A stretch of DNA of 64,000 nucleotides from a phage. This document shows, piece by piece, positions 41,327 through 41,408 of this stretch; within the stretch, counting starts at the first letter, position 1, and each line of letters starts with the position of its first letter. The position numbers and the translations under genes are program-made. The DNA is taken from NCBI GenBank assembly GCA_025830695.1, contig GCA_025830695.1_4111.1. One strand, written 5' to 3'. Under the pieces are notes generated by a model. It was not told the DNA's origin, ran no database searches, and saw only the letters and a program-made list of their open reading frames with translations.

Positions 41327-41408
41327 CCGGGCGTATCTCAACGGTCTTCTAAACCGTCGTTAATCGAGTAACTGGAGTATGCAGGTTCGAGTCCTGTCGC
41401 CTGGGCCA
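41327..41408 (+). tRNA. atypical tRNA-like gene, probably tRNA-Arg (UCU)-like with reduced D-arm
   Basis: Acceptor CCGGGCG/CGCCTGG plus GCCA, T-arm GCAGG-TTCGAGT-CCTGT, perfect anticodon stem-loop ACGGT-CTTCTAA-ACCGT; only 7 nt where a D-arm is expected. Confidence 0.4.

Follow-up and report, generated by a model that had tools for sequence, protein, structure and literature searches.

A tRNA-like element behind tRNA-Ser(UGA)

The window analysed here, that is, the whole stretch of 64,000 nucleotides (nt) of phage contig GCA_025830695.1_4111.1, contains at positions 41327-41408, behind a transfer RNA (tRNA) gene for serine, an 82-nt element that is probably a functional phage tRNA-Arg(UCU), a decoder of AGA codons, with a rewired core in which two internal segments are swapped. 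Window coordinates are used throughout, and L-numbers (L001 etc.) denote retrieved loci, with positions given inside each locus. The window comes from an Asteriusvirus; its region is 94-96% identical to the Asteriusvirus genomes PBECO4 and 121Q, which belong to a group of Escherichia coli jumbo phages. The parts of the element and its upstream neighbour are listed with their proposed equivalents in canonical tRNA numbering.

41233-41322, + strand: canonical tRNA-Ser(UGA), the upstream neighbour (ARAGORN; Rfam, 62.4 bits)
41323-41326, + strand: spacer AAAT, 4 nt, from tRNA-Ser(UGA) to the element (sequence reading)
41327-41408, + strand: whole putative rewired tRNA-Arg(UCU) gene, 82 nt, CCA encoded (Rfam tRNA model, own covariance model R1, identity to 121Q)
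41327-41333, + strand: acceptor 5' strand CCGGGCG, pairs with 41398-41404 (7 pairs, one of them G.U, 41329.41402 = G3.U70)
41334-41335, + strand: U8-A9 connector (invariant in alignment A2)
41336-41339, + strand: UCUC, candidate equivalent of the D-stem 3' strand, positions 22-25 (covariation with 41366-41368)
41340, + strand: A, candidate equivalent of position 26, opposite C41365 (mostly A.C or C.A mismatch, like the canonical 26.44 layer)
41341-41357, + strand: anticodon arm ACGGU-CUUCUAA-ACCGU, anticodon UCU at 41348-41350 (U33, C35, U36, A37)
41358-41365, + strand: bulge CGUUAAUC, 8 nt, putative stand-in for variable-region nucleotides 44-47 (between the anticodon stem and the D-stem 5'-strand equivalent)
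41366-41369, + strand: GAGU, candidate equivalent of the D-stem 5' strand, positions 10-13, G10 pairing with C25 (covariation with 41337-41339)
41370-41380, + strand: D-loop-like block AACUGGAGUA plus U (read as A14 A15 C16 U17 G18 G19 A20 G U A21, then U48 before the T stem)
41381-41397, + strand: T arm GCAGG-UUCGAGU-CCUGU (5-bp stem, UUCRANY-type loop)
41398-41408, + strand: acceptor 3' strand CGCCUGG, discriminator G41405, CCA at 41406-41408 (sequence reading)

A sequence-only reading had described a tRNA-like gene with a 7-base-pair (bp) acceptor stem, a GCCA 3' end, a T arm and an Arg(UCU) anticodon arm, located 4 nt after tRNA-Ser(UGA), and all of these features and spacings are indeed present. 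The serine tRNA ends at 41322 and is followed by the spacer; the acceptor and anticodon stems are 7 nt apart (41334-41340), the anticodon and T stems 23 nt (41358-41380). Between A9 and the anticodon stem there are only 5 nt, and the canonical location of the D arm is empty. No open reading frame (ORF) of at least 30 amino acids overlaps the element in the window.

Covariance-model scoring, proposed in the same reading, recognised the element in one setting and lost it in another. In a local scan of 301 nt, the Rfam tRNA model (RF00005) matched 41327-41405 with 32.6 bits (E = 2.9e-5; gathering score 29), and the alignment lacked 15 D-arm positions and had 20 nt inserted in the variable region. 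The element was not listed in the whole-window gathering scan, and it was not called by ARAGORN on the window. The whole-window scan also omits tRNA-Gly(UCC) at 40131-40203, though ARAGORN finds that gene; default Rfam filters lose weak tRNA matches in the window. Our own covariance model R1 scores the window element with 103.7 bits. The copy in phage 121Q is 100% identical, and the annotation of this identical sequence as tRNA-Leu(taa) is unsupported.

In Asteriusvirus, the slot 4 nt after tRNA-Ser(UGA) is occupied by one of two alleles. When this homologous position was compared in related phages, it held the rewired allele at 97-100% identity (about two dozen records) or an ordinary 77-nt tRNA-Arg(UCU) (ten records, including slurp01, UE-S1, G17 and JP4). 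The flanks of the two alleles are identical and the exchange is limited to the gene. Changes within the rewired allele maintain its helices: in the PBECO4 copy a C-to-U change leads to a G.U in the anticodon stem with pairing kept, and in the JNE01 copy C6-G67 has become U6-A67, which is compensatory. The neighbouring tRNA-Ser(UGA) of 121Q (L001:1538-1627) has the anticodon stem ACGGU/ACCGU, the same as the adjacent rewired tRNA-Arg, and in the window (41233-41322), UE-S1 and slurp01 this stem of tRNA-Ser(UGA) is CUUGU/ACAAG. The identity in 121Q suggests gene conversion between adjoining tRNA genes.

Helices, covariation and probable segment order

Searches with the 82-nt element as blastn query (E <= 0.01) gave a match in 272 phage records, 263 of which cover at least 80% of the element, most of these at about 84-91% identity over nt 3-82 (range to 100%). 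Two looser patterns, one free between the anticodon loop and the T loop and one free of any anticodon requirement, each matched at least 120 DNA stretches in IMG/VR, and the rewired layout appears to be common in viral contigs. A structural scanner that demanded A14, GGA and U8-A9 was run over 328 loci (2.7 Mb) and yielded 206 distinct family members. The bulge after the anticodon stem differs by subfamily (AGCA, AGAA, UGAAA, or CGUUAAYN in the window subfamily) and measures 8 nt in the window subfamily and 3-5 nt in the others; total element length across subfamilies is 78-82 nt among the matches listed. The invariance of CGUUAA within the window subfamily is partly imposed by the retrieval pattern.

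Pairing was studied in alignment A2 (29 distinct sequences), in alignment A3 (67 further distinct sequences) and in a pool of 81 distinct close relatives, which had been retrieved without constraint on the 5' half. Over all helices, 94-95% of cells are paired, compared to 68-70% in shuffles and 33-45% with partners slid. Compensatory changes occur in all seven pairs of the acceptor stem (98-99% of cells paired), in four of five pairs of the anticodon stem and at three to four of five pairs of the T stem (99-100% of cells paired). A fourth helix is formed by alignment columns 11-13 (41337-41339, CUC) with columns 40-42 (41366-41368, GAG), corresponding in the window to C41337-G41368, U41338-A41367 and C41339-G41366, with U41336 opposite U41369. 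Its pairs 11-42, 12-41 and 13-40 are paired in 29/29 and 67/67 sequences, and they vary: pair 12-41 occurs as UA, GC, CG or AU and pair 13-40 as CG, GC, UA or UG. In the pooled close relatives the helix is paired in 81/81, with ten pair combinations (CTC/GAG, CGC/GCG, CTT/AAG, CAC/GTG, CGG/CCG, CTG/CAG, CCC/GGG, CGT/GCG, CGT/ACG and CCG/CGG). The adjoining pair 14-39, which resembles the 26.44 pair, is non-standard in 25/29 and 55/67 sequences and takes up one layer in all of them. Similarly, in a sample of 121 sequences from the first looser pattern, passed on acceptor, anticodon and T stems only, all three pairs of the fourth helix are formed in 104 and two of three in the other 17 (among the matches listed), with a chance rate for three of three of about 5%; the pairing position was 3 nt before 'U-AA..GGA' with 3 nt after U8-A9-N.

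The sequence-only reading had also offered an extra hairpin, GTTA-ATCGAG-TAAC, between the anticodon and T stems. In alignment A2 its four pairs are invariant or change on one side only, within the window subfamily they never vary, UUA is missing from the other subfamilies, and the loop of the hairpin holds the GAG that pairs elsewhere. The hairpin was rejected as a family feature.

A decaying tRNA pseudogene after loss of the D arm, another of the original suggestions, would be in line with the marginal Rfam score, with the failure of ARAGORN to call the element and with its lack of annotation in most records. Decay would hardly leave more than 200 distinct sequences with compensatory changes in each of the four helices, nor 263 records with at least 80% coverage, most of them 84-100% identical, in unrelated phage families; also, the anticodon complements the canonical tRNA-Arg genes of the phage. 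The conservation pattern refutes the pseudogene reading, and we consider its chance negligible.

On account of the CUC/GAG covariation and of the D-loop landmarks in the block that follows GAG, segment 10-21 is placed downstream of segment 22-47. In canonical numbering the order would be 1-9, then 22-43 plus the bulge resembling 44-47, then 10-21, then 48, then 49-76. The 5' CUC (23-25) would lead straight down into the anticodon stem, and after the anticodon arm and bulge GAG-U (10-13) would pair back to CUC. There would follow the D-loop-like block A14 A15 Y16 U17 G18 G19 A20, two extra nucleotides and A21, and the chain would enter the T stem via U48. The block U-AAYUGGAGUA-U shows the landmarks of an arginine-tRNA D loop (A14, R15, G18, G19, A20, A21 and Y48), and with this mapping all tRNA-core nucleotides are present, with U8.A14, R15-Y48 and G18/G19 with the T loop as candidate contacts. 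From the anticodon loop to the elbow, five anticodon-stem pairs, the 26.44-like mismatch, the three pairs of the fourth helix and U.U make a stack of 5 + 1 + 3 + 1 = 10 layers, which is the canonical count and is constant in the 81 close relatives. In members whose bulge is 4 nt long, the number of nucleotides is exactly that of a canonical tRNA-Arg.

At positions that the scanner left free, the U13 equivalent is U in 206/206 and the A21 equivalent is A in 205/206 sequences. A14 is found in 206/206, where the scanner demanded A, and U8-A9, where it demanded TA, was likewise fixed, so that the census is no test of these positions. In the 121-sequence sample, in which the block was unconstrained, U-AA..GGA is present in 121/121 (among the matches listed). 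The equivalents of R15 and Y48 are A-U in 203 and G-C in 3 of the 206 sequences, with no mixed combination, as in a Levitt pair. ARAGORN called none of the 206 native sequences; when block 10-21 was moved to the canonical place, 199/206 were called as full-length tRNA-Arg, compared to 128-142/206 (about 66%) when the moved block was shuffled. This un-permutation test is informative but lenient: swapping the 10-12 strand among sequences hardly altered the call rate, and it fell only when the entire moved block was shuffled. From these resemblances we infer that the transposed block may be equivalent to a D loop in three dimensions.

The term 'D-armless tRNA', which comes nearest of the three options in the sequence-only reading, thus holds for the usual place of the D arm, where there is none, and fails to cover the D-stem equivalent CUC/GAG and the D-loop-like block found elsewhere. 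An alternative which keeps the term is a functional tRNA-Arg of the loose D-armless type known from animal mitochondria, in which CUC/GAG would do no more than lengthen the anticodon stem, with the 11-nt block serving as a flexible connector. The Rfam alignment does treat the element as a D-arm deletion, the topology of CUC/GAG is that of a longer anticodon helix bulged on its 3' side, continuous pairing of an irregular kind is seen there in some subfamilies (e.g., TTGGC/GTGCAT, or GCC/AGC with only two of three pairs), and known D-armless tRNAs work by flexibility (PMC7609411). A flexible connector, however, would not be expected to be conserved where the scanner was unconstrained, as are A21 (205/206), the U before the T stem and the R15-Y48 covariation, or to contain GGA in all of the 121 listed sequences with a free block. 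The fully canonical T arm and T loop, the constant 10-layer count in the 81 close relatives and the lack of such a GG block in mitochondrial D-armless tRNAs also argue against this alternative, which we regard as unlikely.

Probable arginine identity and complementary distribution

The 206 distinct sequences carry the anticodons UCU (161), ACG (22), CCU (14), UCG (7), CCG (1) and GCG (1), all of which are arginine anticodons. The Arg(UCU) assignment made from the sequence is supported; the true 7-nt loop varies only among arginine anticodons in the family. Loci obtained with the anticodon-free pattern likewise gave arginine anticodons only among the matches listed (ACG 13, UCU 11, CCU 8, UCG 6, CCG 1, GCG 1), and a relaxed structural scan of 2.7 Mb of tRNA-cluster DNA, chosen for its arginine members, revealed no other amino-acid identity on this scaffold. 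The identity set of bacterial tRNA-Arg comprises A20, C35, U/G36 and A/G73 (PMC9976931). C35 together with U36 or G36 is present in the window (UCU) and in 206/206 sequences (NCU or NCG). As discriminator, 48 of the 81 close relatives have G and 28 have A, the 206 sequences have G in 107 and A in 69 cases, and the window has G41405; CCA is encoded in 54/81 close relatives. The candidate A20 equivalent, A41376, sits in the transposed block within an invariant GGA, a motif that the scanner demanded. Of 103 canonical phage tRNA-Arg from the same loci, 82% have GG followed by A, compared to 10% of 1,563 other tRNAs.

Within phage tRNA clusters, the element occupies the arginine slot left vacant by the canonical genes. 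In large clusters, a canonical Arg-UCU gene is present in 3/62 cases when the element is UCU and in 7/15 otherwise (p = 2e-4), and a canonical Arg-ACG gene in 1/13 when the element is ACG and in 33/64 otherwise (p = 0.005); these Fisher p-values are optimistic, as the loci are not phylogenetically independent. Locus L270 has a UCU element beside canonical tRNA-Arg genes with ACG, CCG and CCU, locus L265 a UCG element beside CCG, CCU, GCG and UCU, and locus L254 an ACG element beside CCU, UCG and UCU. Several rewired tRNA-Arg genes may lie on one metagenomic contig, as in L089 with CCU, UCU and ACG (4102-4183, 8598-8679 and 11201-11282), in L219, likewise with three isoacceptors on this scaffold, and in L043 (12999-13080 and 13348-13429) with a rewired CCU gene and a divergent UCU copy. 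The post-anticodon block of this divergent L043 copy is AAUUGGAUAG, still nearer to a canonical D loop.

The distribution also bears on the earlier proposal of a tRNA-derived regulatory RNA. A regulatory role is disfavoured by the arginine-only anticodons and by a distribution complementary to that of canonical tRNA-Arg genes. In a broader form of this idea, the element would be a tRNA mimic acting outside translation, either as a decoy or sponge for a nuclease or another enzyme that targets tRNA-Arg, or as an element in the regulation or processing of the tRNA operon. Defences that target tRNAs have been documented, as have phage tRNAs that counter them (PMC11464382), the limitation to a single isotype would be fitting for a decoy of an Arg-specific nuclease, and charging of the element is a prediction. 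A decoy, however, need not fill exactly the slot of the missing isoacceptor, need not take the slot of a canonical tRNA-Arg(UCU) allele, and need not keep the 7/5 branch, the A/G discriminator, an encoded CCA and the canonical layer count. We judge a role as mimic to be distinctly improbable.

One pair in the acceptor stem would fit a different amino acid. The window copy has G3.U70 (41329.41402), the identity pair of alanine, and so have the copies of Felix O1, Sugarland and Iguana (L004, L005 and L006). Among the tRNA genes of the same phage loci, 97% of tRNA-Ala have G3.U70, compared to 0-3% for every other named isotype, and the enterobacterial-phage clade of the family retains it while pairs 1-72 and 2-71 change. 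In principle, the element could thus read AGA while carrying alanine through G3.U70, or leucine or serine, so that AGA would be recoded or ambiguous; records that label copies as tRNA-Leu(taa) in 121Q and as tRNA-Val(aac) in Yaboi would point in this direction. However, only 8/206 members have the pair, which was therefore rejected as a family trait or alanine identity, and the canonical tRNA-Arg(UCU) allele of the same slot has it too (L003:1718-1794); in slurp01 and UE-S1 the first five acceptor pairs of that allele are the same, CGGGG/CCUCG. Furthermore, the window copy has C2-G71 and G73 and not the alanine-type G2-C71 and A73, the putative arginine determinants are all conserved family-wide, the supposed Leu and Val anticodons fall in invariant or unpaired segments, and the element lacks the long variable hairpin of substrates of the seryl- and leucyl-tRNA synthetases (SerRS/LeuRS). 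An AGA reader with another amino acid is very improbable; for the window copy, cross-charging by AlaRS is possible.

Several points weigh against a functional, segment-swapped tRNA-Arg, in addition to the shared ancestry of loci mentioned with the p-values. The 3-bp fourth helix was not predicted by RNAalifold and is weak by nearest-neighbour energetics, so that the case for it is one of covariation and not of energy, and the fold of the element alone does not exceed shuffles in stability (z = -0.61). Retrieval patterns fixed some of the 'invariant' motifs (CGTTAA, GTAA and TGGAGTATGC), as the scanner did with GGA. The mapping of the block consists of motif resemblance plus one tertiary pair, which varies in only 3 distinct sequences on 2 contigs, and A9 and the bulge have no evident place in a canonical core. 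In 8/267 loci, though no more, the anticodon of the element is shared by a canonical tRNA-Arg. The host's own tRNA-Arg(UCU) reads AGA too, and hence the phage copy is not proven to be necessary. Finally, exclusive charging with arginine is not assured for the window copy because of its G3.U70.

Occurrence, related tRNA types and proposed function

Phages with family members infect Escherichia, Salmonella, Klebsiella, Streptomyces, Microbacterium and Agrobacterium, and many further members are on metagenomic viral contigs. The blastn matches include Felix O1-like phages, the T5-like Klebsiella phage Sugarland, KB57/Iguana-like phages, Justusliebigvirus, Kuravirus and Streptomyces phages, and cultured phages of Agrobacterium, Stenotrophomonas, Streptomyces and Microbacterium carry further subfamilies without annotation. 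Nearly always, the members lie inside a tRNA cluster. GenBank records mostly have no feature on the element, and a few name it tRNA-OTHER, Undet, Leu or Val, with the copy of phage Yaboi labelled tRNA-Val(aac). A conserved-core pattern found 45 loci in IMG/VR and 84 in metagenomes; across 185,579 bacterial and archaeal species, each represented by one genome, it matched only three times, twice on contigs of metagenome-assembled genomes and once in a Flavobacterium isolate genome, where the match fails the model. No match to the element was detected in 5,426 complete E. coli genomes. With this result and the near-absence from cellular genomes, an origin from the host was rejected. As best supported by these sequence surveys, the element would belong to a large, virus-restricted and arginine-only family which standard annotation has overlooked. 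No published description of the rewired layout was found, sequence strings included; coverage of subscription journals was incomplete, and an earlier description is possible.

Genes for HNH endonucleases adjoin the rewired tRNA in the unrelated phages Sugarland, Bas93 and A3Wally (L005:1589-2098, L011:1034-1483 and L333:1132-1494), and the annotation of FO1a and tootiki lists an HNH endonuclease at the site of the element. Such genes may be a vehicle that spreads the rewired tRNA between phage lineages.

Compared to canonical tRNA-Arg(UCU), such as the 77-nt gene of slurp01 and UE-S1, the T4 tRNA-Arg and E. coli argU, the element has the same 7-bp acceptor, 5-bp T stem and UUCRA loop, 5-bp anticodon stem, loop CUUCUAA, A/G discriminator, GGA and CCA, a location in phage tRNA clusters and, presumably, the same role in AGA decoding. 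It differs in that segment 10-21, which in canonical tRNA-Arg precedes the anticodon arm, would follow the anticodon arm and a variable-type bulge; the anticodon arm would close off the D-stem equivalent, and the block resembling a D loop would run directly into the T stem. In the window subfamily the 8-nt bulge replaces variable-loop nucleotides 44-47. Relative to the canonical cloverleaf (RF00005), acceptor, T arm and anticodon arm are present, and a D arm between position 9 and the anticodon arm is absent.

Circularly permuted and split tRNA genes are found in Cyanidioschyzon merolae and some archaea; in these genes the 3' half is encoded ahead of the 5' half, and the mature tRNA is normal again after processing. 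They share with the element a non-canonical order of segments in the gene. In contrast to them, the acceptor strands of the element are at the gene ends in normal order and the exchange, of 10-21 with 22-47, is internal; nothing suggests that it is undone, and the mature RNA itself would therefore have a new topology. Metazoan mitochondrial D-armless tRNA-Ser(AGY/AGN) likewise have no D arm after position 9 and an extended anticodon helix, and nematode mitochondrial tRNA-Ser(UCU) coincidentally has the same UCU anticodon. These are organellar serine tRNAs based on flexibility, with no GG block docking to the T loop and often with reduced T arms (PMC7609411), whereas the element is viral and Arg-specific, with a full canonical T arm and putative core nucleotides in a transposed block. 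Allo-tRNAs have an 8/4 or 9/3 acceptor/T split, long variable arms and Ser/Leu identity (PMC5389517). Like the element, they are non-canonical, come from metagenomes or phage tRNA clusters and are missed or mislabelled by standard tools; in contrast to class II and allo-tRNAs, the element is strictly 7/5, lacks a variable hairpin and is Arg-specific.

In the proposed function, the element would be transcribed together with tRNA-Ser(UGA) as a dicistronic precursor from the promoter-like site listed here.

41195-41222, + strand: promoter-like site GGGACA-16 nt-TATAAT with TG upstream (consensus scan; consensus match only)

RNase P would cleave in the 4-nt spacer, host ArgRS would charge the tRNA, and the product would supply AGA decoding to a phage with 33% GC. 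In the window ORFs, AGA accounts for 26% of Arg codons (10.1 per 1000 codons). Conserved proteins were considered as a direct check on the meaning of AGA, but the subunits of topoisomerase II (Pfam and PDB alignment) contain only one or two AGA codons, outside well-aligned columns, too few for such a check. As to why the arginine-only layout is kept in phages of hosts from Enterobacteria to Actinobacteria, we offer tentatively that the scaffold might still satisfy ArgRS, EF-Tu and the ribosome while evading a recogniser of the normal D-arm/variable-region face; this is a possibility on the doubtful side. Candidates for the evaded agent are a nuclease or toxin of a host defence directed at tRNA, a host enzyme of modification or quality control, and a nuclease by which a phage depletes host tRNA, and the canonical/rewired allele pair of Asteriusvirus would then be a determinant of host range.

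If the rewired tRNA-Arg is what it appears to be, the L-shape of tRNA can be built with another strand connectivity and still serve translation, and a natural 'segment-swapped' tRNA exists outside organelles. Phage tRNA-Arg repertoires, and analyses of codon usage and tRNAs, would be systematically incomplete for AGA, AGG and CGN, because standard annotation misses or mislabels the family. The rewired scaffold would be a candidate orthogonal chassis for tRNA engineering, and the canonical and rewired alleles of Asteriusvirus would form a natural pair for direct comparison, including with tRNA-targeting defence systems.

Some minor observations concern the surroundings. Directly downstream of the element, at 41430-41916, are three tandem paralogous ORFs of 54 amino acids (MTHEEWMNDINFRYSGIG...), of which there are three in 121Q and two in UE-S1 and slurp01. 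A second tRNA-Ser, at 43202-43291 in the window, has the anticodon GCU, and ARAGORN reads ACU (A34) in 121Q (L001:3511-3602) and slurp01 (L003:3445-3536). The ARAGORN calls in UE-S1 include a 'tRNA-???' (L002:3482-3556), for which an anticodon of four bases (tcat) is given. One viral contig from IMG/VR has a transfer-messenger RNA (tmRNA) gene within its tRNA cluster (L038:6424-6703; tag ANSMNASAFALAA), and the rewired tRNA-Arg of the same contig closely resembles the copy of Streptomyces phage Yaboi.

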